From: a virus
Virus genome (UHGV): UHGV-1472163
Length of the DNA stretch: 40,843 bases
Strand: one strand, 5' to 3'
The translations under genes were made by a program, and so were the position numbers. Positions 1 through 40,843 of this stretch are shown piece by piece. Position 1 is the stretch's first letter. Every line of letters starts with the position of its first letter. Below the pieces are notes generated by a model. That model searched no databases, was not told the origin of the DNA, and was given only the letters and a program-made list of their open reading frames with translations.

Positions 1-60
1 ATAAAACATCATGCAGACATATTACCAATATTAATATAAGGTAATAAAAATATAATTTAC

Positions 61-90
61 AAAAAAGCCCGTTGGAAGCGACGGGCATTA
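61..90 (-). terminator. Putative Rho-independent terminator downstream of int
   Basis: Hairpin GCCCGT-N8-ACGGGC preceded on + strand by A6 (T6 on - strand), about 150 bp 3' of the int stop. Confidence 0.4.
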
Positions 91-237
91 ACCGCGGTAA
101 TGGATAAATTATTAATGTTTTTAGATTGTGAACGATATCATATTGTGCGGAAGTAGTGAAGTAACCATGTAGAATGATTGTTTCATAGCCTATGAGACAC
201 ACAAGGCTTTGTGCTCTTCGATAGTTGTTAAGGCGGA

Positions 238-1395
238 TCACTCTACCTTCTCATCAAGCCAATCCGCCCACCACTGCATCATTTCTCTGCGCTTATCGAG
301 ATACTGAGCATGGTTGTAAATCCCACGCACAGATCCGCCGTTGGCATGTGCCAGTTGCACTTCAATAGCGTCAGCAGGCCATTCGTGCTCGTTCATAATC
401 GTGCTGAATTCATGCCTGAATCCGTGACCGCTTTCCAGACCTTCATAGCCGATTTGTTTGATCACAAGCAATACCGCGTTCTCGCAGATTGGTTTCTTCT
501 TATCGTTGCGCCCGGCAAAAACAAACTCTGAGACTGGTTTGGTGATTGAGCTTAGCGTAGTAAGAAGTTCAACCACTTGGTCTGACATAGGAACCACATG
601 AATTTTGCGTCCCTTCATCACACTGGCGTCGATGGTGATAATCCTGTTTTCAAAATCGACGCTCTTCCATTGCATGGAACGAAGCTCTTTCGTTCTTAGG
701 GCTGTGTAGCGTAAGACTTTGGTCGCAATGAGCGATACGATACTTCCTGAAAATGTTGCCAGTGCTTTGTTGAATGCAGGGATCTGGTCTGCTGGAAGAA
801 ACGGGAAGTTCTTCTTGCGGTATCCTTTCATGGCGTCTGCAAGGTCAGGTGCCGGGTTATATTTAGCCCTTCCGGTGACAATAGCGTAACGAAAAACCTC
901 GCCGCATCTTCTGCGGGCTTTATTGGCTCGTTCCATTGCACCGCGATCTTCAAATCTGCGGATTACTTCCAGCAGTTGCATCGGCTCAATATCCTGAATC
1001 TCAAGACCGCCGATGATAGGTAAAATGTCGTCATCAAACATTTTTGCAAGTTCAGTCGCATACCCTACTGACCATACTTGCTTCTTGTGCTCGTACCATT
1101 CTTTGTAAATCGCACTAAAGGAATTGTTGTTAGACGAAGCCTTTTTCGCCTTTACCGGATCGATGCCAACCGAGATGTCTTTCTTCGCGGTCCATGCTTT
1201 ATCTCTTGCCTCCTGCAAAGTCATTAGCGGATATTTTCCTACGGTCAGTATTTTTTCCTTACCGTCAATCTTGTAGCGAAGCTGCCATACCTTTTTCCCT
1301 GATACAGGGACATAAAGATACAGGCCATTACCGTCGAGAAGGCGGTATGGTTTTTCTTTCGGCTTTGCTGCTTCAATCTGCTTAACGGTGAGCAT
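238..1395 (-). CDS. int: Phage integrase, tyrosine recombinase (P4-like family)
   Basis: Track ORF 238..1431 trimmed to in-frame Met13 (MLTVKQIEAAKP...); N-terminal arm-binding-type motif YRLLDGNGLYLYV, C-terminal catalytic region (GHGFRHEF, NHAQYL); sits next to xis at the prophage end. Confidence 0.85.
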   Translation of the reverse strand: MLTVKQIEAAKPKEKPYRLLDGNGLYLYVPVSGKKVWQLRYKIDGKEKILTVGKYPLMTLQEARDKAWTAKKDISVGIDPVKAKKASSNNNSFSAIYKEWYEHKKQVWSVGYATELAKMFDDDILPIIGGLEIQDIEPMQLLEVIRRFEDRGAMERANKARRRCGEVFRYAIVTGRAKYNPAPDLADAMKGYRKKNFPFLPADQIPAFNKALATFSGSIVSLIATKVLRYTALRTKELRSMQWKSVDFENRIITIDASVMKGRKIHVVPMSDQVVELLTTLSSITKPVSEFVFAGRNDKKKPICENAVLLVIKQIGYEGLESGHGFRHEFSTIMNEHEWPADAIEVQLAHANGGSVRGIYNHAQYLDKRREMMQWWADWLDEKVE

Positions 1396-1651
1396 GGGTA
1401 AAAATCCGGTGGGTAAAATTATTTTATCCACTTTTTACCCGTCATGGAGTGCGGCTGTCAACGATCTGACGCGAACCATTACGAACTGTGAATCTACGGA
1501 AGGCTTGATATTCAGGGGATTTTGCGGACTGTTACGGATGGGAGCGAACTGATAAATGGTGTCCCCTGCAGACATCTACTTGAAGCGGCAGGGGATTGAT
1601 TGGAATGGTGTTTTTTAGATGTGAAAAATATTTTACCCGCTATTTTACCCA
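1396..1651. repeat. Five copies of octamer GGGTAAAA/TTTTACCC in the int-xis intergenic region (candidate Int/Xis binding sites)
   Basis: GGGTAAAA at about 1396 and 1411; TTTTACCC at about 1433, 1631 and 1644; all non-coding once int starts at 1395. Confidence 0.4.
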
Positions 1652-2707: not shown

Positions 2708-3291
2708 TTCACCTCCTGCGGCGGTTCCGGTAGCCGCATCCAGTCGGTTACATTACGACTCTGTGTTTCGAAAAATTCATCACCATTGCGGACAATATCG
2801 AAAAACTCTCCGTCTCGATATTGCGCATAAAGAACGAATGCGCCATCACATAAAATAATTACGTGCTGACCATCATCTGGCATTCGCTCACTACAGCTTA
2901 TCCAACCATCCGGAGTTACCGGATAGTTGCCCGACAGCTCGTTCAACTTGTAAGTTTGGCTTACAGGTTCGGCTTCCAGTTCTGCAATGCGCTTCTCTGC
3001 AGCTTCCAGCTCAACGCGCAGCCTCCCAACCGTTAGCGCAATATCCTCGTTCTCCTGGTCGCGGCGTTTGATGTATTGCTGGTTTCTTTCCCGTTCATCC
3101 AGCAGTGCCAGCACGGTTTCTGGTCCGGTCAGAAATTTGAAGGCGTTGAGCGCATCAATATCCACACCGTAATCTTTAAGTTCCTGTTCACTTAACAAAT
3201 CATCATCAACTGGCAACATTAGCAGGCGATCCATTGCCGGAATTGCACGCTCTGCCTCCTCACGCAGTGCCTGATAGTCAATCTTGCTCAC
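2704..3291 (-). CDS. Hypothetical ea-region protein with DUF551-like C-terminal domain
   Basis: 195-aa ORF; C-terminal CSERMPDDGQHVIIL...DGEFFD pattern resembles DUF551 as I recall it; not searched. Confidence 0.6.
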   Translation of the reverse strand: MSKIDYQALREEAERAIPAMDRLLMLPVDDDLLSEQELKDYGVDIDALNAFKFLTGPETVLALLDERERNQQYIKRRDQENEDIALTVGRLRVELEAAEKRIAELEAEPVSQTYKLNELSGNYPVTPDGWISCSERMPDDGQHVIILCDGAFVLYAQYRDGEFFDIVRNGDEFFETQSRNVTDWMRLPEPPQEVK

Positions 3292-3881
3292 TGGTTGCCT
3301 CCTTTGCGAAGCTGGGCAGCAAAGTCAACTAACCACTCAGTCATTTCAACCTTCCCTACCAGGTCTGAACCAGGGTGCATACAGCAATCACTCTGCGCCG
3401 CTTTGAAATCCTTATACTCATATTCTTGGACCACCAGATTTTTTGCAGCTTCTATAGCAGCATCCACCCCCTGCGCCCGCACTTCAGACAGGAAAGCATC
3501 AGTGGCTGGAATGGGCTTTTGTGGTGATATAGCAATGCGAATTGTCTCAAGGTCTGGATCTGTTTCCGCTGCTGGCACCTTGATATAACCCATCTGCACC
3601 CCATTCATGATGAACCTGCGACGGTCATCACATATCGCCTTTAGCCCCGCACTCTCCGCTGCCAGCGCCGCGCACTTGGCCTCAAGGTTATCAATCGTGA
3701 TTCCAGCAGAACGACACTCCCGCAACGCCGTTTCCAGTTTTGATTCAAGCTCACCGAACTTACGCACCAGATATTCAGCGTTTGTTTCGTTAACCTTTAA
3801 ATCTCGTGGGATGCATTTACCTTTCAGAAATCCATCCATCTCAATTAGTGACATTTGTTTCATTTCTTCCCACTCCGCCAC
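3288..3881 (-). CDS. Hypothetical ea-region protein (197 aa, apparent GTG start)
   Basis: Track ORF; 4-nt overlap with downstream gene suggests translational coupling. Confidence 0.55.
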
Positions 3882-4024
3882 ATCGCATTCAGATATTTGT
3901 TTTGATTTACTGAAGGAAAAGAATTTCTCTTAAGCAATTCCTCTCTCGATGGCATTGGCTTTACTCGTTGGCGAATAATCATTTCTGCCGGAAGAATGCC
4001 GGGATTGTATGCAAGTCCTCTCAT
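3860..4024 (-). CDS. Hypothetical small protein (54 aa)
   Basis: Hand-translated [57 protein letters not shown] filling the gap between track ORFs; ATGA start/stop overlap with upstream gene. Confidence 0.3.
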
Positions 4025-4302
4025 GATTTACTCTCCACTAACTGGTCAATAGCCATGCTAAGTGACATACCTAAAGTTTCGATATGCTGCTGAATATCCT
4101 GTAGCGTCTGCGCCTGAGATAACAGGATTTCACGGTTGCATAACTCTTTAACCAGATGCTCAAACTTGCTGTAATAACCGATACGACTTAGTGTTTCTTT
4201 CCCTGCATTCTCGCCTTCTTTGATAATTCCTCTTTCACTAAGAATCAGGTCGTGTTTGGTTCCGGTAATAACGTATTTTCCGAGGTCGATGTTTAGCTTC
4301 AT
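4021..4302 (-). CDS. Hypothetical protein (93 aa)
   Basis: Track ORF in leftward operon. Confidence 0.55.
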
Positions 4303-4318
4303 TGTTAATTACTCCATG

Positions 4319-4633
4319 TTAATTTATTCGTATGCCTGCTCTTTCTTCATCGAGTTTTTTTAGCTTGTATCGCATAGCTCTTACTGAATAAATTGAGCGG
4401 CAGGTTGCAATTGCTATTTCTTCTGCGGAGAACTTACCGAAAAGTGATACTTCGGCTCTTGTCCAGCGTCTTCCACGAAGTCGGCTAACAATGTCAGCGC
4501 CAATCCTTGTTGCTTTTGCCATTACTGCTTTTTCAGTCCTTTCCAGTTTTTCAGCGATAACTTGAACTGGCATTGTCGCCGCTACTTCGCGCAAGAAATC
4601 GACTTCCCATTTCTCCCATGGAGTCTTTTTCAT
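4319..4633 (-). CDS. Hypothetical protein (104 aa), basic
   Basis: Track ORF in leftward operon. Confidence 0.55.
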   Translation of the reverse strand: MKKTPWEKWEVDFLREVAATMPVQVIAEKLERTEKAVMAKATRIGADIVSRLRGRRWTRAEVSLFGKFSAEEIAIATCRSIYSVRAMRYKLKKLDEERAGIRIN

Positions 4634-4644
4634 AGTCGATACCG

Positions 4645-5133
4645 TTATTTGATAAGAAGTGAAGGTTTCCCAACCTTGAGTTGAGCGCCGGGGATATTTA
4701 TTCCTGCTTTTAGTTGGTGCTTGATTGCCAACTTGTCGGCTTTAATTGTCGTTTCGAACTCAACGTATTCAGGAGGAAGGGCGCTTGAGTCGATGATTTC
4801 TACAGTTTCTGACGGTTTGCGGATTGTTACCTGGTGAATACCTGCTCTAATCTTTTTCTTGCCAACCATTTCAAGCGATGACGCTATATATGATTTGATG
4901 CTGTCAATCTTATTTTGAATTACTGCGGCTCGCTCATTCAGCGACTTTGCCTCTTCCTTGAGGCGTTCAGCATAACCAGATTCATTTTTAATGACGGAAA
5001 GAAGTTGCTCTATTTTATCGGTAAATTCTCCTTCCATGCCTTCTATTGTGTCAGCAATCATCTCTGGTTCTAAATCTGAATCCATCAATTTTGCGTATTC
5101 ATTGGCAATTTCATACAGTTTGCTCACTGGCAA
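4645..5133 (-). CDS. Gp157-like protein associated with RecT recombination modules
   Basis: 162-aa acidic coiled-coil protein immediately downstream of and overlapping recT; family assignment from memory only. Confidence 0.45.
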   Translation of the reverse strand: MPVSKLYEIANEYAKLMDSDLEPEMIADTIEGMEGEFTDKIEQLLSVIKNESGYAERLKEEAKSLNERAAVIQNKIDSIKSYIASSLEMVGKKKIRAGIHQVTIRKPSETVEIIDSSALPPEYVEFETTIKADKLAIKHQLKAGINIPGAQLKVGKPSLLIK

Positions 5134-6013
5134 CCTCCAGTTTCGCTTTGCATTCTGCGTAAATGGCTTGTACGTTCTGCTGCAATTTCATTCCAGATGT
5201 CAGGCGATATGCTTCTGCAAAATATCGCTTCAAATCATCCATGTTTTCTGCCTGAGCCATTTCATCGCAAAGAAGTTGTGCTTTATCCATTATTTCCTGC
5301 TGGCGTTTCCGTTCATCTTCGCGGATATCTTCCTCTGATTTGTGCGGCATAACTGGTTCCTGATGCATACCTTCATCTTCGTTAAGAAGGTGAATGGCAT
5401 TATCCAGTCGCTGGGCTTTAGGCCAGTATTTGCTGGCGCGTTTAACTATTGTTTTACGCGCCATCTCTTCCCAGAATGTTTTCCACGGTCCATTCTTTGC
5501 CTTGCTCGTTGCTTCCACAGCTTTAATTTCTGCCAGACTCATTTCTTCAGTCAGGTAGTCACCATCTGCTGTTTTAACCGTGCAATAACCTCCAACAATA
5601 GAGCCTCGCTCACCAAATGCGTTGTATTTGTGGGTTGGTGCTGAATCAAGGCCATTTGATTCATAGGTGTCGTTTGAGTACACCAGTTTGCATTGCCCCC
5701 ACTTAATAGAACCTGTCGATTGCGCAAGGTGAAGTAATCCCATATAGCTGATATCAAGGCAAACCATGCCGTCGCGCGGAACTAGATAAGCAAGTTTGCT
5801 GGCCGGGTTTAAGGTGATGCCGATCGCCGCAACATTGATGATGGCGTTCTGTGCGCTGGTTGGGTTTGCCAGTGCTGTTTTAGCCAGGTAATCGTTTTTC
5901 TGGAAATACTGAATTGCAAACTGGCTTTCCTTAGCCCATGTCACCGTCTGTTCAGTCAATGCTCCGCAGAATAACTGCTCCTGCTGTTTAACGAATTCAA
6001 CGATATTGCTCAT
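5111..6013 (-). CDS. recT: RecT-family single-strand annealing recombinase
   Basis: 300-aa ORF with RecT/Bet-like core; sits in the recombination-module position of the pL operon. Confidence 0.85.
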   Translation of the reverse strand: MSNIVEFVKQQEQLFCGALTEQTVTWAKESQFAIQYFQKNDYLAKTALANPTSAQNAIINVAAIGITLNPASKLAYLVPRDGMVCLDISYMGLLHLAQSTGSIKWGQCKLVYSNDTYESNGLDSAPTHKYNAFGERGSIVGGYCTVKTADGDYLTEEMSLAEIKAVEATSKAKNGPWKTFWEEMARKTIVKRASKYWPKAQRLDNAIHLLNEDEGMHQEPVMPHKSEEDIREDERKRQQEIMDKAQLLCDEMAQAENMDDLKRYFAEAYRLTSGMKLQQNVQAIYAECKAKLEVASEQTV

Positions 6014-28898: not shown

Positions 28899-29599
28899 TG
28901 GCTGATTCGAATCTCAACACCCCTGTTATTGTGCAGGCGACGCGGCTCGATACATCAATCCTTCCACGCAATATATTCAGCCAGTCTTACCTGCTGTATG
29001 TCATTAATCAGGGGGCTGATGTCGGCGCAATTGCCGGGAAAGCAAATCAGGCTGGTCAGGGCGCTTACGATGCTCAGGTGAAAAACGATGAACAGGATGT
29101 CGAACTGGCTGACCACGATGCAAGAATCACCGCAAACACAAAAGCGATAAATCTCCTTGAGGTCAGGTTAACAACCGCCGAAGGGAAGATAGTTGTACTG
29201 CGTAGCGATGTTGATTACTTGCTGGATGAGGTTATCGATATTCAGGCGCATCTGGTCACTGTTGACCAAAGACTGGATGGCGTAGAAAGCGATATATCTG
29301 ACATTAAGAGTGATTACGTATCGAAAACCGTAACAGAATCGCAGTCTCTTGCGTCACCGCTGGATGTAAAAACATCATATTCAGTTGATGGAATTCAGGT
29401 CGTTGGAGCAAGGCAGACCGGATGGACAGCGGCCACAGGCACACCACTTCTTGGCTCATTCAACGCTAACCAGTCATACACGGTCGGCACTACGTACACA
29501 CAATCCGAAGTCGCAGCTATCGCTACAGGTTTGGAGCAGGCGCGGCAGCGTATTCTGGCGCTTGAAACAGCACTTAGATTACATGGGCTGATTGACTGA
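28898..29599 (+). CDS. Tail needle (P22 gp26-like)
   Basis: 233-aa ORF from Met35 of track ORF ([18 protein letters not shown]...), trimeric coiled-coil heptads, C-terminal ALRLHGLID as in P22 gp26. Confidence 0.8.
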
Positions 29600-35109: not shown

Positions 35110-35137
35110 AATTAACCCACCGTCAGGTGGGTTTTTT
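35110..35137. terminator. Putative bidirectional Rho-independent terminator
   Basis: Stem CCCACC/GGTGGG followed by T6 on + strand; overlaps stop of the Mnt-like gene. Confidence 0.45.
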
Positions 35138-35497
35138 GTTGTCATCACCAAGATATTTCTGCTTATATTCCTCTGAAAGAGGAATTGATCTTTCAACCAT
35201 GCTAATAAGTTTATCTACTTGTTTTTTCTGTTTTTCTATGATTTCTAAAAGTTGAGGTATAAGTTTTTCATGCTCGATTTTATCATATTTTCTGTTTATC
35301 GCATCTAGTTGTTCTTTAAACTGCTGAACGATAGGACCATCCTCCGGCCCAAAATCACGACAAACACGAATCGCCAACTCAAGCAGAGTGACAATCTCAG
35401 CATTCATAGAACGATTATTTTGTTTTGATGACGCTTCAATTATTTTTTTTAATTCAACAGGAAGCCTAATCCGAAGTTGAGGGTCTTCTCTACTCAT
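35123..35497 (-). CDS. Mnt/Arc-family ribbon-helix-helix repressor with extended C-terminal coiled coil
   Basis: 124-aa ORF; N-terminus LRIRLPVELKKIIEASSKQNNRSMNAEIVTLLELAI fits RHH pattern; divergent from arc-like gene across palindromic operators. Confidence 0.65.
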   Translation of the reverse strand: MSREDPQLRIRLPVELKKIIEASSKQNNRSMNAEIVTLLELAIRVCRDFGPEDGPIVQQFKEQLDAINRKYDKIEHEKLIPQLLEIIEKQKKQVDKLISMVERSIPLSEEYKQKYLGDDNKKPT

Positions 35498-35537
35498 ACC
35501 ATTAGTCCAAACAGGAAAAATTCACAATAAGTAAATT

Positions 35538-35605
35538 ATGCCCCACGGTGGGGTTGACTTCAATGACGCACGGTGTGACAATTTCAATTGCCCCACAGTG
35601 GGGCT
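35538..35605. promoter_or_regulatory. immI-like control region: two 13-bp palindromic operators flanking a rightward promoter
   Basis: CCCCACGGTGGGG (about 35540-35552) and CCCCACAGTGGGG (about 35590-35602); TTGACT-17-GACAAT with TG extension between them; AAGGAG SD before arc-like ATG. Confidence 0.55.
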
Positions 35606-35619
35606 ATTTAAGGAGTGGA

Positions 35620-35787
35620 GATGGAAAAAGCAAAAGACATGTATCAACGCAAGGTTCGTTTCCCAGAGGATGTAAGGAAGGCGATTGAAAGAAATGGAGA
35701 AAAAGAGTGTCGACAGTTCAACACGGAACTTATTTATCAATTGAGAAAAGTGTACGGACTGATTGGAGAGAAGAATGCTAGGACATA
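35620..35787 (+). CDS. arc: Arc-like ribbon-helix-helix regulator (55 aa)
   Basis: Hand-translated ORF MEKAKDMYQRKVRFPEDVRKAIERNGEKECRQFNTELIYQLRKVYGLIGEKNART; RHH pattern; first gene of rightward immI-like operon. Confidence 0.6.
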
Positions 35788-35861
35788 AAAATAGTGAAGC
35801 CCGGCAGTGCGCGAACACAAACCGGGCCTCTATGTCAGTAACCGTATGCAAGGAAACTAAC

Positions 35862-36488
35862 ATGAATATTGTAGCAAAATCAGATTACAACTTCCACGGA
35901 GTTGAGTTGGTGCCCACCCGTGATATGCATGGTGTTTGGTTTACATCATCTAATATTGCATCTGCACTTAAATACGCAAATAGTCGTGCAGTAACAATGA
36001 TTTATAACAAGTATAGCGATGAGTTTAGCGCCGGAATGACTCAGGTACTCGAAGTGAGTACCTCAGGAAATTATCGCAAAAAAGTGCGAGTTTTCTCACT
36101 ACGCGGTGCCCACCTAATCGCGATGTTTGCTCGCACTCCGGTAGCCAAAGAGTTCCGCCGCTGGGTGCTGGATATTTTGGATCGGCAGGCAGAATGCTCA
36201 CCGATTGCAAAACAGTTTACTGACGAAGAACTGGTTAATCTCTGCTACTTACAATTGTGGATGGAGAAGAGTCAACAAATGTGCAAACACATCTACCCAG
36301 GAATGAAGCAAATTTGTTCTGAGCTTTCAGGAAGGATTTACGATATCGCATATGAGACTCGCTATATGTCAGAAGAAACCAAGAAATCACTTCTTCGTGA
36401 AATGAAGAATCTTGATACCAACAATTTTGTCGTAAAGAACGCTCAGCCAATGCTGGCAAAACTGCGCGGCGAGGAATGGATTCATTGA
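35862..36488 (+). CDS. ant: Antirepressor with Bro-N/KilA-N-type domain
   Basis: 208-aa ORF from Met34 of track ORF (MNIVAKSDYNFHGVELV...); AAGGAA SD; position after arc as in P22 immI. Confidence 0.7.
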   Translation: MNIVAKSDYNFHGVELVPTRDMHGVWFTSSNIASALKYANSRAVTMIYNKYSDEFSAGMTQVLEVSTSGNYRKKVRVFSLRGAHLIAMFARTPVAKEFRRWVLDILDRQAECSPIAKQFTDEELVNLCYLQLWMEKSQQMCKHIYPGMKQICSELSGRIYDIAYETRYMSEETKKSLLREMKNLDTNNFVVKNAQPMLAKLRGEEWIH

Positions 36489-36576
36489 TTGGTGCGCCGG
36501 ACGGCGCAAAAAGAAAACCGCCAGTGTGCTGCTGGCGGCCTATGTCACACCCTTACTACCACATAAGGAATGCCTA

Positions 36577-37305
36577 ATGACTTTTAAGAATGTAGCAAAC
36601 ATCGGATCCGTTGTCACGGATAAAACCATTGACAGCCAGCGCCTGCTTGAGATGGTAAATCAGGCTCGTAGACAGTGCGGTGAGCCGGAGGTTCGTAATA
36701 ACAAATTCATCGAGAAAATTGAAGATGAATTGGATGGAGAGCACTACACAAAAAGTGTAGTGCAAAAAGCGAACAAAACTTCGATGGTTATCATTGAGAT
36801 GTCAATCAAGCAAGCATTGCGAGTTGCCGCTCGCGAGTCAAAAGCCGTTCGCCGCTCACTGGTAGACCAACTTGAAAGTATGCAAGAAGCGCACATTAAA
36901 AGCGGTAAATCAGCGAGTGGACTTGTTGAGTATCGTCAAGCGCGAACATTGAAAATGACGGTTGAAGCTGTTACCAATCTGTTCGATCTGATGCCAAATC
37001 TTGCGCCTGAGGCAAAGCAGACAGCGGCAGCAAGTATAATCAACCCGCTTGTTGGTTTTAATGCAATACCTCTTCCGGCAATAGAAGAGCATTACTACTC
37101 AGCAGGGGAGGTTGCAGAGCAGCTTGGAGTAACGGCCAACAAGATTGGTCGCATTGCTAACGCAAACAACCTCAAAACTGAGCAGTACGGGAAGTTCTTC
37201 CTGGATAAATCGGCGCATTCCAGCAAACAGGTAGAGGCGTTCCGTTACAATTCTGAAGGCGTTAAAGCACTACAACACCTGCTACATGGCTCAAATGTGG
37301 CGTAA
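36577..37305 (+). CDS. Second antirepressor-like protein (KilAC-like C-terminal domain)
   Basis: 242-aa ORF from Met18 of track ORF (MTFKNVANIGS...); C-terminus YYSAGEVAEQLGVTANKIGRIANANNL... KilAC-like by eye. Confidence 0.55.
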   Translation: MTFKNVANIGSVVTDKTIDSQRLLEMVNQARRQCGEPEVRNNKFIEKIEDELDGEHYTKSVVQKANKTSMVIIEMSIKQALRVAARESKAVRRSLVDQLESMQEAHIKSGKSASGLVEYRQARTLKMTVEAVTNLFDLMPNLAPEAKQTAAASIINPLVGFNAIPLPAIEEHYYSAGEVAEQLGVTANKIGRIANANNLKTEQYGKFFLDKSAHSSKQVEAFRYNSEGVKALQHLLHGSNVA

Positions 37306-37321
37306 CATTTTATAATGAAAA

Positions 37322-37350
37322 CTAAACCCGCTTAATCGCGGGTTTTTTCT
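37322..37350. terminator. Bidirectional Rho-independent terminator
   Basis: AACCCGC-TTAAT-CGCGGGTT hairpin followed by T6; overlaps the convergent stop of the Mnt-like gene. Confidence 0.5.
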
Positions 37351-37589
37351 TTCCTTAGAATTTCAGCCGCAACTTCTTTTACTCGTTCCGAGATTAATGA
37401 GGCCAGCCTCTCTTCTTCATCACGATACCCGCTTACAGGTGATGGTTTGGAGAGTGATTCTTCCATCGTAGCCACAATTTCGGAATTGATAGACCTGTTA
37501 TTCATTTTTGCACGCTGCTTAATCTTAGCGTGCAACTCGTGTGTAAGCCTCAAGTGGAACTGCGCCTCATCGTATTTGCTGTACATCAT
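37332..37589 (-). CDS. mnt: Mnt-like repressor (P22 Mnt type)
   Basis: 85-aa ORF (C-terminal part of track ORF 37332..37985): NNRSINSEIVATMEESLSKPSPVSGYRDEEERLA matches P22 Mnt NGRSMNSELLQIVQDALSKPSPVTGYRNDAERLA as recalled. Confidence 0.7.
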   Translation of the reverse strand: MMYSKYDEAQFHLRLTHELHAKIKQRAKMNNRSINSEIVATMEESLSKPSPVSGYRDEEERLASLISERVKEVAAEILRKEKTRD

Positions 37590-37721
37590 CAATGCCTCAC
37601 CAAATGGGTGGAATGGCATCGTAAAACCTACTGTACAAATCAACAATCGTACCGTTTCGGTATGTAATAAATGCCAACCGTAGCCATGCTGCGGCGATTC
37701 CTTGTATCTGGAGCAAATTAA

Positions 37722-40667
37722 ATGACAGACATTACAGCCAATGTTGTAGTGAGTATGCCTTCGCAACTCTTCACTATGGCGCGTTCTTTTAAAGCCGTAG
37801 CTAATGGCAAAATTTATATCGGTAAAATTGACACTGACCCGGTAAATCCTGAAAACCAGATTCAGGTCTATGTTGAGAACGAAGATGGTTCTCACGTTCC
37901 TGTTTCGCAACCAATCATCATTAACGCCGCTGGATATCCGGTATATAACGGACAGATTGCCAAGTTCGTAACCGTGCAAGGCCATTCTATGGCTGTTTAT
38001 GATGCGTATGGTACACAGCAGTTCTATTTTCCGAATGTGCTGAAGTATGATCCTGATCAGTTACGGCAGCAATTAGAAGACCCAGATGGAGCGAATAAAT
38101 ACCCAAAACTTCAGATAGCAAGATGGAGAGACAGTTATGATGTAAGAGGTTGGGGGGCTATTGGTGATGGTGTTCATGATGATACATCAGCTCTATCAGA
38201 ATTACTTTCTGTTGCAACAGGTGGTGAAAAGATAGATGGGCGAGGGCTTACTTTTAAAGTATCAACTCTTCCAGATGTCAGTCGATTTAAAAATGCTCGT
38301 TTTTTATTTGAGAGAATACCGGGTCAGCCTCTTTTTTATGCTTCTGAAGATTTTATCCAGGGAGAGTTATTTAAAATTACAGATACACCGTGGTACAACG
38401 CCTGGACGCAGGATAAAACGTTTGTATATGACAATGTCATCTATGCGCCTTTTATGGCTGGAGACCGCCATGGTGTAAATAACCTCCATGTTGCATGGGT
38501 TCGCTCAGGAGATGACGGGAAGACCTGGACAACGCCGGAATGGCTTACAGATTTACATGAAAACTATCCCACAGTTAACTATCACTGCATGAGTATGGGG
38601 GTTGTCAGAAATCGCCTTTTTGCTGTAATTGAGACGCGGACCGTGAGCGGAAATAAACTGCAGGTTGCAGAGTTGTGGGATCGCCCAATGAGTCGCAGCC
38701 TTCGCGTTTATGGTGGTATAACGAAAGCAGCAAATCAGCAAGTCGCTTATATTCGCATTACTGATCACGGATTATTTGCTGGTGATTTTGTCAACTTCTC
38801 AAACTCTGGTGTTACAGGTGTTACCGGGAATATGACGGTGACTACTGTTATTGATAAAAATACTTTTACAGTTACGACGCAAAATACCCAGGATGTGGAT
38901 CAGAATAACGAGGGTAGATACTGGAGTTTTGGTACATCATTTCACTCGTCACCATGGAGAAAAACCAGTCTTGGAACTATTCCTTCTTTTGTTGACGGAA
39001 GCACTCCTGTTACTGAGATTCACAGTTTTGCGACGATTAGCGATAACAGTTTTGCTGTTGGCTACCATAATGGTGATATTGGCCCACGCGAGCTTGGGAT
39101 ACTCTATTTCTCTGATGCTTTCGGTTCTCCTGGTAGCTTTGTTCGCAGACGCATACCTGCAGAATATGAGGCGAATGCATCTGAGCCATGTGTAAAATAT
39201 TATGATGGCATTCTGTATCTGACGACCAGGGGGACATTAAGTACTCAACCCGGTAGTTCATTGCACAGAAGCTCTGATTTAGGTACATCATGGAATTCTC
39301 TTCGCTTCCCAAATAATGTTCATCACTCAAACCTTCCTTTTGCCAAAGTTGGCGATGAGCTGATTATTTTTGGCAGTGAGCGCGCATTTGGTGAGTGGGA
39401 AGGAGGAGAACCTGATAACCGTTATGCAGGAAATTATCCAAGAACATTTATGACCAGAGTTAACGTCAATGAGTGGAGTCTGGATAATGTAGAGTGGGTT
39501 AATGTTACTGATCAGATTTATCAGGGCGGAATAGTTAACTCTGCGGTTGGTGTTGGTTCAGTTTGTATCAAAGACAACTGGCTGTACTACATTTTCGGTG
39601 GGGAAGACTTTCTAAACCCATGGAGCATAGGGGATAACAACAGAAAATATCCTTATGTTCACGATGGTCACCCGGCTGATTTGTATTGTTTCAGGGTGAA
39701 AATTAAACAGGAAGAATTTGTTTCAAGGGATTTTGTCTACGGAGCCACTCCTAACAGAACGCTTCCTACTTTTATGTCGACGTCAGGCGTGAGGACGGTT
39801 CCTGTACCCGTTGATTTCACAGATGATGTTGCCGTCCAGTCACTGACTGTCCATGCAGGTACATCAGGACAAGTTCGCGCGGAAGTCAAACTTGAGGGTA
39901 ATTACGCCATTATTGCGAAGAAAGTACCGTCTGATGATGTTACCGCTCAGAGATTAATCGTTAGCGGCGGTGAAACAACGTCTTCAGCAGATGGTGCAAT
40001 GATAACGTTGCATGGTTCCGGAAGCAGTACTCCACGTCGCGCGGTATATAACGCACTCGAACATCTTTTTGAGAACGGAGATGTTAAACCTTATCTTGAT
40101 AATGTAAATGCTCTTGGTGGTCCGGGAAACAGGTTCTCGACAGTTTATCTTGGCTCCAATCCTGTGGTTACCAGTGACGGAACATTAAAGACAGAGCCGG
40201 TCTCTCCTGACGAAGAATTGCTGGATGCCTGGGGTGACGTCAGGTATATCGCTTATAAATGGCTGAACGCTGTCGCTATAAAGGGGGAAGAAGGGGCGAG
40301 GATACATCATGGTGTAATCGCGCAGCAACTTCGTGATGTTCTTATTTCTCACGGACTCATGGAAGAAGAAAGCACAACATGCCGCTATGCCTTTCTTTGC
40401 TATGACGATTATCCCGCAGTATATGATGACGTCATTACTGGCCAAAGGGAAATGCCGCTGACTGATAATGACGGGAGCATCATTGTTGATGAGGATGATA
40501 ATCCAGTGATGGTAATGGAAGACATCATTGAGCGCGTTGAAATAACGCCAGCAGGATCTAGATGGGGGGTCAGACCTGATCTCTTATTCTATATCGAGGC
40601 GGCATGGCAGCGCAGAGAAATAGAAAGAATAAAAGCTAGGTTAGACTTAATAGAAGGGAAGCACTAA
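37722..40667 (+). CDS. Tailspike: P22-type head-binding N-terminus fused to endosialidase-like domain with C-terminal chaperone domain
   Basis: 981-aa ORF; N-terminal about 125 aa match P22 gp9 head-binding domain as recalled; two sialidase Asp-box motifs ([16 protein letters not shown]); C-terminus with SDGTLK Ser-Lys region resembling S74 chaperone domain. Confidence 0.85.
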
Positions 40668-40820
40668 ATGTTTCGTTGGCGTCAAAAATATGAACTGCTC
40701 ACATAAAGAAGTAAGTACATTGGCAAAAAACATTGACGTCAACGAAATTAAATATAAAAATTTAAATGCTTTTTAATGACAAGAAAAGTAACTAGTGGTA
40801 AAATAACGTAGGATACTAAT

Positions 40821-40843
40821 ATGTCAAGACTCAAGACTCAAGA
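40821..40843 (+). CDS. neuO: 5' end of neuO-like phase-variable polysialic acid O-acetyltransferase gene (truncated by window end)
   Basis: ATG followed immediately by tandem AAGACTC heptads, downstream of an endosialidase tailspike; only 23 nt visible. Confidence 0.5.
40826..40843 (+). repeat. AAGACTC heptanucleotide tandem repeat (two full copies plus partial third, continues beyond window)
   Basis: Read directly: AAGACTC AAGACTC AAGA starting 3 nt after ATG. Confidence 0.6.

Follow-up and report, generated by a model that had tools for sequence, protein, structure and literature searches.

For module exchange among tailspikes, the protein of phage CUS-3 serves as the standard example. Its N-terminal domain is common to CUS-3, HK620, Sf6, and P22, and its catalytic domain is the same as that of K1F, in which the N-terminus is of the T7 tail-fibre type. 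A 2017 review regarded this arrangement as clearly due to the horizontal exchange of modules and listed the CUS-3 protein (CAJ29292) as a 109-kDa endo-N-acetylneuraminidase (PMC5380687). The chimera of a P22 adaptor and a K1F-type endosialidase is thus already known from the published CUS-3 tailspike, and its occurrence at the locus described here offers nothing new for biology. On the adaptor side, the tailspikes P22 gp9, epsilon34 gp19, and Sf6 gp14 have the head-binding domain, the YDPDQ motif at its end, and the genome position after the immI region in common with the protein studied here. Their receptor-binding parts differ, being right-handed beta-helix O-antigen endoglycosidases without an S74 chaperone domain. 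On the enzyme side, the K1F endosialidase endoNF (gp17; PDB 1v0e, 3gvl, and 3gw6) shares with it the active-site residues, the Asp-boxes, the stalk, the chaperone domain, and the cleavage site. It differs in its N-terminus, which is a T7-type tail fibre (Phage_T7_tail plus Tail_spike_N) without a P22 head-binding domain, and in small insertions and deletions elsewhere.

The window analysed here is the whole 40,843-nucleotide stretch of the UHGV virus genome UHGV-1472163. At 37722..40667 on the plus strand it carries a single intact open reading frame of 981 codons, with an ATG start and a GGAG sequence about 10 nt upstream. The encoded precursor has a calculated mass of 109.3 kDa, which matches the mass given for the CUS-3 protein. 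The gene was 98.9% identical in nucleotides and 99.2% identical in amino acids to CUS-3 siaK1 (CP000711, ABQ88383), which likewise encodes 981 residues in an equal domain order. Eight amino acid substitutions separate the two proteins (V9I, P43T, T98A, P121T, A207V, G767R, T807I, and E832T), none of which affects a catalytic or cleavage residue. The siaK1 record is annotated as “endosialidase tailspike protein” with the GO term endo-alpha-sialidase activity under the evidence code IDA (PMID 16689790). The earlier note had proposed polysialic acid, the K1 capsule, as the receptor, and the near-identity to an orthologue with this annotation supports that proposal.

The reading frame was accordingly annotated as an endosialidase tailspike precursor gene and siaK1 orthologue. 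With a probability of about 96%, its product is the tailspike that both binds and destroys the receptor for a temperate E. coli K1 phage of the P22 type resembling CUS-3. This identification draws on four direct observations: the domain architecture, the conservation of functional residues, the near-identity to siaK1, and the genomic context; no result spoke against it. The gene was also 99.4% identical in DNA to vB_EcoP-720R6, and a comparison with 5426 complete E. coli genomes found at least 80% of it in 154.

Domains were assigned with Pfam at curated cut-offs and with a sequence search of chains from solved structures in the PDB. Six Pfam families matched above their cut-offs: Head_binding, End_N_terminal, End_beta_propel, End_beta_barrel, End_tail_spike, and Peptidase_S74. 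The four endosialidase families were each covered over the whole model, their E-values ranging between 1e-233 and 9e-37. The protein begins with a P22-type head-binding (virion-attachment) domain at residues 1-113 (37722..38060, PF09008, E 6.2e-67), followed by a neck or linker at residues 114-145 (38061..38156), which aligns to K1F residues 214-245 and is where homology to other endosialidases begins. A complete endosialidase extends from residue 146 to 817 by both Pfam and the solved structures. It consists of an N-terminal extension at residues 146-212 (38157..38357, PF12218, E 9e-37), a catalytic six-bladed beta-propeller at residues 213-662 (38358..39707, PF12217, E 1e-233), a beta-barrel nested in the propeller at residues 324-406 (38691..38939, PF12195, E 1e-46), and a stalk (tailspike) domain at residues 663-817 (39708..40172, PF12219, E 7.5e-78). 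The C-terminal residues 818-981 (40173..40664) form the intramolecular chaperone, or self-cleaving, domain, as assigned from Peptidase_S74 (PF13884) and the chain 3gw6. All of these features lie on the plus strand. Crystal chains of K1F endoNF (1v0e, 3gvl, and others) matched residues 145-817 at E = 0. Solved relatives cover the entire protein except residues 128-144, which align to K1F residues 228-244.

The head-binding domain was matched over the full Pfam model, from position 1 to 113 of 113. Among the PDB chains, P22 gp9 matched residues 1-127 (E 1.5e-50) and Sf6 gp14 matched residues 1-118 (E 6.5e-65). DNA homology with CUS-3, 720R6, phiv205-1, P22, and epsilon34 begins at position 37677 in each case, 45 nt upstream of the ATG. 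The resulting leader on the plus strand (37677..37721), which contains the GGAG ribosome-binding site, forms the left edge of a tailspike module common to P22-like phages. It lies within the “bsq1 boundary sequence” of the CUS-3 record, directly upstream of siaK1. At the other end, the P22 DNA is homologous up to 38059 and that of epsilon34 up to 38064. Identity to P22 gp9 drops there from 77% over residues 1-113 to 23% over residues 114-145, while residues 1-113 are 90% identical to epsilon34 gp19. The alignment to K1F endoNF starts at residue 114, just after the YDPDQ motif that ends the head-binding domain at residue 113. It is 56% identical over residues 114-145, 63.9% over residues 114-980, and 70% in the propeller. 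Because the DNA homology to P22 and epsilon34 stops, the protein identity to P22 drops, and the K1F homology starts at one and the same place, the sequence comparison puts the module-exchange junction at residue 113/114, near nucleotide 38060. A local protein alignment carried the P22 gp9 homology on to residue 237; this was dismissed as alignment drift, as identity past residue 113 was only 23-32% and the DNA homology ends at 38059.

The earlier note had described a match to the P22 gp9 head-binding domain over roughly the first 125 residues, with an exchange junction near residue 125. The match itself was confirmed by PF09008 and the PDB chains, while the end of the domain and the junction had to be moved about 12 residues towards the N-terminus. 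Its view that the remainder is unrelated to the P22 endorhamnosidase was confirmed, and the alignments it had suggested, to K1 phage endosialidases and to P22 gp9, recovered the two homologies on either side of the junction. From sequence alone it correctly recognised how the protein is built, its receptor, and roughly where the junction lies, which makes the gene a useful positive control.

Functional residues were mapped by a pairwise alignment of residues 114-980 to full-length K1F gp17. Five endoNF residues, H350, R549, E581, R596, and R647, were key and intolerant to substitution in a deep mutational scan (PMC12632334). All five are conserved in the active site of the protein described here, as H250, R456, E488, R503, and R554, respectively, and the residues equivalent to endoNF Q330, D331, K585, and N699 are conserved as well. 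The endosialidase-specific propeller model PF12217 was matched in full with 775 bits. Together with the structural matches, these results support the central region as a bona fide endosialidase, beyond the sialidase-like propeller that had been described earlier. Differences from endoNF within the enzyme include a 7-residue insertion at 423-429 and, in the stalk, M760 at the position of endoNF Q853, both of which also occur in CUS-3. Q853 belongs to the sialic-acid-binding site of the endoNF stalk. In the stalk segment 700-749, identity to K1F is just 40%.

These stalk differences bear on the specificity of the enzyme, which might be shifted relative to the classical K1 enzyme so that O-acetylated polysialic acid is tolerated or preferred, or the K92 alpha-2,8/2,9 polymer is cut as well. 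The divergent segment at 700-749 and M760 would fit such a shift, as would the 59.6% identity to the endosialidase of phage phi92 and the position of the gene directly upstream of neuO, the product of which O-acetylates the same polymer. However, endoNF has the very same active-site residues, and the CUS-3 orthologue, only eight residues apart, is annotated as an endo-alpha-sialidase on direct-assay evidence. A shifted specificity is therefore considered unlikely, and the classical K1-capsule endosialidase is retained as the reading of the enzyme.

The C-terminal domain follows the stalk. Peptidase_S74 (PF13884) scored 41.2 bits over residues 818-878, above its cut-off of 22 (E 2e-10), and 3gw6, a crystal chain of the endoNF stalk plus chaperone, matched residues 698-979 (E 4.2e-94). 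In the K1F record the mature protein ends at residue 910 and the chaperone domain starts at 911, which aligns to 817|818 here. The alignment around this site reads ...GSNPIVT|SNGERK in K1F and ...GSNPVVT|SDGTLK in the present protein, and it is at the aligned ...GSNPIVT that the endoNF crystal chain terminates. Cleavage is thus predicted at the bond T817|S818 and would be expected to give a mature subunit of 90.5 kDa and a released domain of 18.7 kDa. The Ser-Lys dyad, described together with its role as a folding sensor in PMC3742443, is present as S818/K823, equivalent to S911/K916 of endoNF, and G864 is equivalent to endoNF G956. D819 occupies the position of endoNF N912, as it does in CUS-3. 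Aspartate is native at this position in MYRF, where an alanine change lowered processing (PMC3742443). An 8-residue insertion in the chaperone domain relative to K1F endoNF is also found in CUS-3. The earlier suggestion of a C-terminal domain resembling the self-cleaving chaperone of endosialidases is borne out by the S74 match, the 3gw6 match, and the dyad. Both the sialidase fold, seen in the endoNF chains at E = 0, and the S74 domain, above its cut-off, were therefore recovered.

Upstream of the gene, the window carries P22-type genes for the portal, major head protein, head-tail adaptor, head closure, tail needle, and ejection proteins. PHROGs assigned the portal, the head-tail adaptor Ad3, the head closure Hc3, and the tail needle at 22470-29599. 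As these virion genes are of the P22 type, the genome also encodes the partner to which the head-binding domain would dock. An immI-like region lies between the virion genes and the tailspike and consists of a Bro-N/P22_AR_C antirepressor, an unassigned 259-aa open reading frame, a terminator that works in both directions (37324-37345), and, on the minus strand, an Arc/Mnt-like repressor. A longer minus-strand frame at 37332-37985 (217 aa), which overlaps the tailspike start, was rejected as a gene, since only its last 83 codons, at 37332-37583, match the Arc/Mnt repressor; the corresponding Mnt genes of 720R6 and SCU-124 measure 252 nt each.

The downstream end of the window (40821..40843, plus strand) holds the 5' end of neuO, the hallmark gene of CUS-3, which reads ATG-TC-AAGACTC-AAGACTC-AAGA and is cut off by the window end. 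It was a 100% match to the start of an acyltransferase gene in E. coli SCU-124, and a phase-variable heptanucleotide repeat two bases past the start codon has been described for neuO (PMC3046976). At the opposite end, window positions 1-1571 were 97% identical to CUS-3 from just past the neuO stop codon, through intS, to the attL core, at which the window diverges from the CUS-3 attL. This identity rules out an HK620-type integrase or a non-CUS-3 backbone at that end. Taken together, the neuO start and the segment from intS to the attL core indicate a genome of the CUS-3 kind whose permutation is the joined (attP) one and in which the body of neuO falls outside the window. The markers of a CUS-3-like prophage were thus found: siaK1 followed by neuO with its AAGACTC repeat, and an attachment module of the intS/argW type. 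CUS-3 and the window share the boundary sequence upstream of the tailspike and the neuO repeat downstream of it, whereas the surrounding genome is mosaic: the immI-like region differs from that of CUS-3, and the best CUS-3 match covers only 51% of window positions 1-25000. Through its tailspike gene the window can be recognised as a CUS-3-like phage of extraintestinal pathogenic E. coli with a K1 capsule.

The same context speaks to whether the gene could be a decaying remnant in a cryptic prophage from which a working tailspike is no longer made. Decay does occur among relatives, as an insertion sequence breaks the phiv205-1 copy just past residue 70 or so, and in 720R6 neuO was missing and no more than a short stretch of the integrase region matched. 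In the window, however, the reading frame is full-length and of CUS-3 size, without frameshift or stop and with catalytic and cleavage residues intact, and it is accompanied by complete P22-type virion genes and by the integrase with attP in joined form. This makes a remnant very improbable, and a functional tailspike gene is the preferred reading.

Two Asp-boxes were located in the propeller on the plus strand. The first, SGDDGKTW at residues 262-269 (38505..38528), aligned to SGDDGQTW of endoNF, and the second, SSDLGTSW at residues 517-524 (39270..39293), aligned to SRDIGQTW. Both motifs had been pointed out before, the second with exact coordinates and the first one base off. Across 20,000 shuffles of the sequence, S.D.G.[TS]W had a mean count of 0.0016 per protein and was never present twice; the motifs are therefore not due to chance. 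While the two Asp-boxes and a weak BNR_2 match might suggest a generic BNR/Asp-box exo-sialidase (neuraminidase) instead of an endo-acting capsule depolymerase, this has next to no probability, as BNR_2 reached only 17.4 bits against a cut-off of 31.4, far from the score of the endosialidase propeller model, and the protein has both the nested beta-barrel and the stalk, two features specific to phage endosialidases.

For an endo-acting tailspike of this kind, catalysis, self-cleavage, and docking can be proposed by analogy with K1F endoNF and CUS-3. Following the established work on endoNF and P22, the 109-kDa precursor would trimerise and fold its stalk under the guidance of the C-terminal chaperone domain (818-981). 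Once the trimer has folded, S818/K823 would cut between T817 and S818, freeing the 18.7-kDa domain and leaving the 90.5-kDa subunit, a step suggested by the conservation of these residues. Also on the strength of residue conservation, the head-binding domain (1-113) would dock the trimer onto a P22-type tail hub of gp4-, gp10-, and gp26-like proteins encoded upstream. In line with the established work again, the propeller, with H250, R456, E488, R503, and R554, would then bind and endo-cleave the alpha-2,8-polysialic acid of the K1 capsule, allowing the virion to tunnel to the outer membrane, while the beta-barrel and the stalk may serve as polysialic-acid-binding surfaces.

A further relative was found in vB_EcoP_ZX5, a temperate Uetakevirus. 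Its tailspike was 99.2% identical in amino acids over residues 174-971, corresponding to 99.5% DNA identity over window positions 38243-40635, and it likewise carries the endosialidase and S74 domains. It differs in about 190 unrelated N-terminal residues without a P22 head-binding domain and in its last 10 residues, which are also unrelated. The paper on ZX5 noted the endosialidase domains and does not mention CUS-3. There are even odds that a cassette made up of the endosialidase and chaperone core (residues 174-971, nt 38243-40635) moved very recently between temperate podoviruses of two genera, the P22-like Lederbergvirus described here and the Uetakevirus ZX5. If so, K1 specificity would have been swapped by recombination at sites within the folded receptor-binding module. 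The comparison defines a second, non-canonical pair of junctions, at nt 38243 and 40635. Both breakpoints lie off the canonical hinge between head-binding and receptor-binding parts, the one within the endosialidase N-terminal extension and the other 10 codons before the stop, and they form a small addition to a known theme.

The endosialidase and chaperone core of the window tailspike (37722-40667) was also found in the Uetakevirus vB_EcoP_ZX5, where positions 3123-5515 of the comparison sequence (L004) were 99.5% identical at the DNA level to window 38243-40635. Both breakpoints of this match were sharp, with one lying within the End_N_terminal domain (the endosialidase N-terminal extension) and the other 10 codons short of the stop. 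The near-identity of the shared core, together with its sharp ends, suggests that phages of different genera recently exchanged it at a non-canonical junction.

In phiv205-1, a prophage of avian pathogenic E. coli, the CUS-3 tailspike is present in decayed form (L005 344-5739), as the gene is interrupted past residue ~70 by an insertion with two transposase genes. The relative vB_EcoP-720R6 carries the identical tailspike, but precisely without neuO: window 40781 is fused to window 26 at the junction (L002 7060/7061). Beyond this junction the match extends as far as window 321, where it breaks off within the integrase gene at its 3' end; host bio-region genes come next.

Window 1-1571, which contains the integrase gene intS (238-1431, minus strand), was 97% identical to the segment of CUS-3 that stretches from just past the neuO stop through intS to the attL core, and identity was lost past TGGTGTCCCCTGCAG at ~1571. 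This match and its break identify the window as the excised (attP-joined) permutation, with the body of neuO lying outside it. Only the first 23 bases of neuO, a polysialic acid O-acetyltransferase gene, occupy the end of the window (40821-40843), and they read ATG, TC and 2.5 copies of AAGACTC, a phase-variable repeat. A TG-extended promoter-like site (40776-40804) lies directly 5' of the neuO start. The stretch that separates neuO from the tailspike stop contains a long inverted repeat (40672-40750), imperfect, with arms TTTCGTTGGCGTCAA and TTGACGTCAACGAAA located ~45 nt apart; it was not among the calls of the terminator scan.

Upstream of the tailspike, the immI-like region (35123-37583) is unlike that of CUS-3. 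It comprises an Arc-like repressor (35123-35497, minus strand), a Bro-N/P22_AR_C antirepressor (35862-36488), a 259-aa ORF (36526-37305) with zero matches in the Pfam search, a bidirectional terminator (37324-37345), and a second Arc-like repressor, an 83-aa Mnt/Arc-like gene (37332-37583, minus strand). A 217-aa minus-strand ORF overlapping the tailspike start (37332-37985) was rejected as a gene, being an artefactual upstream extension of this 83-aa gene.
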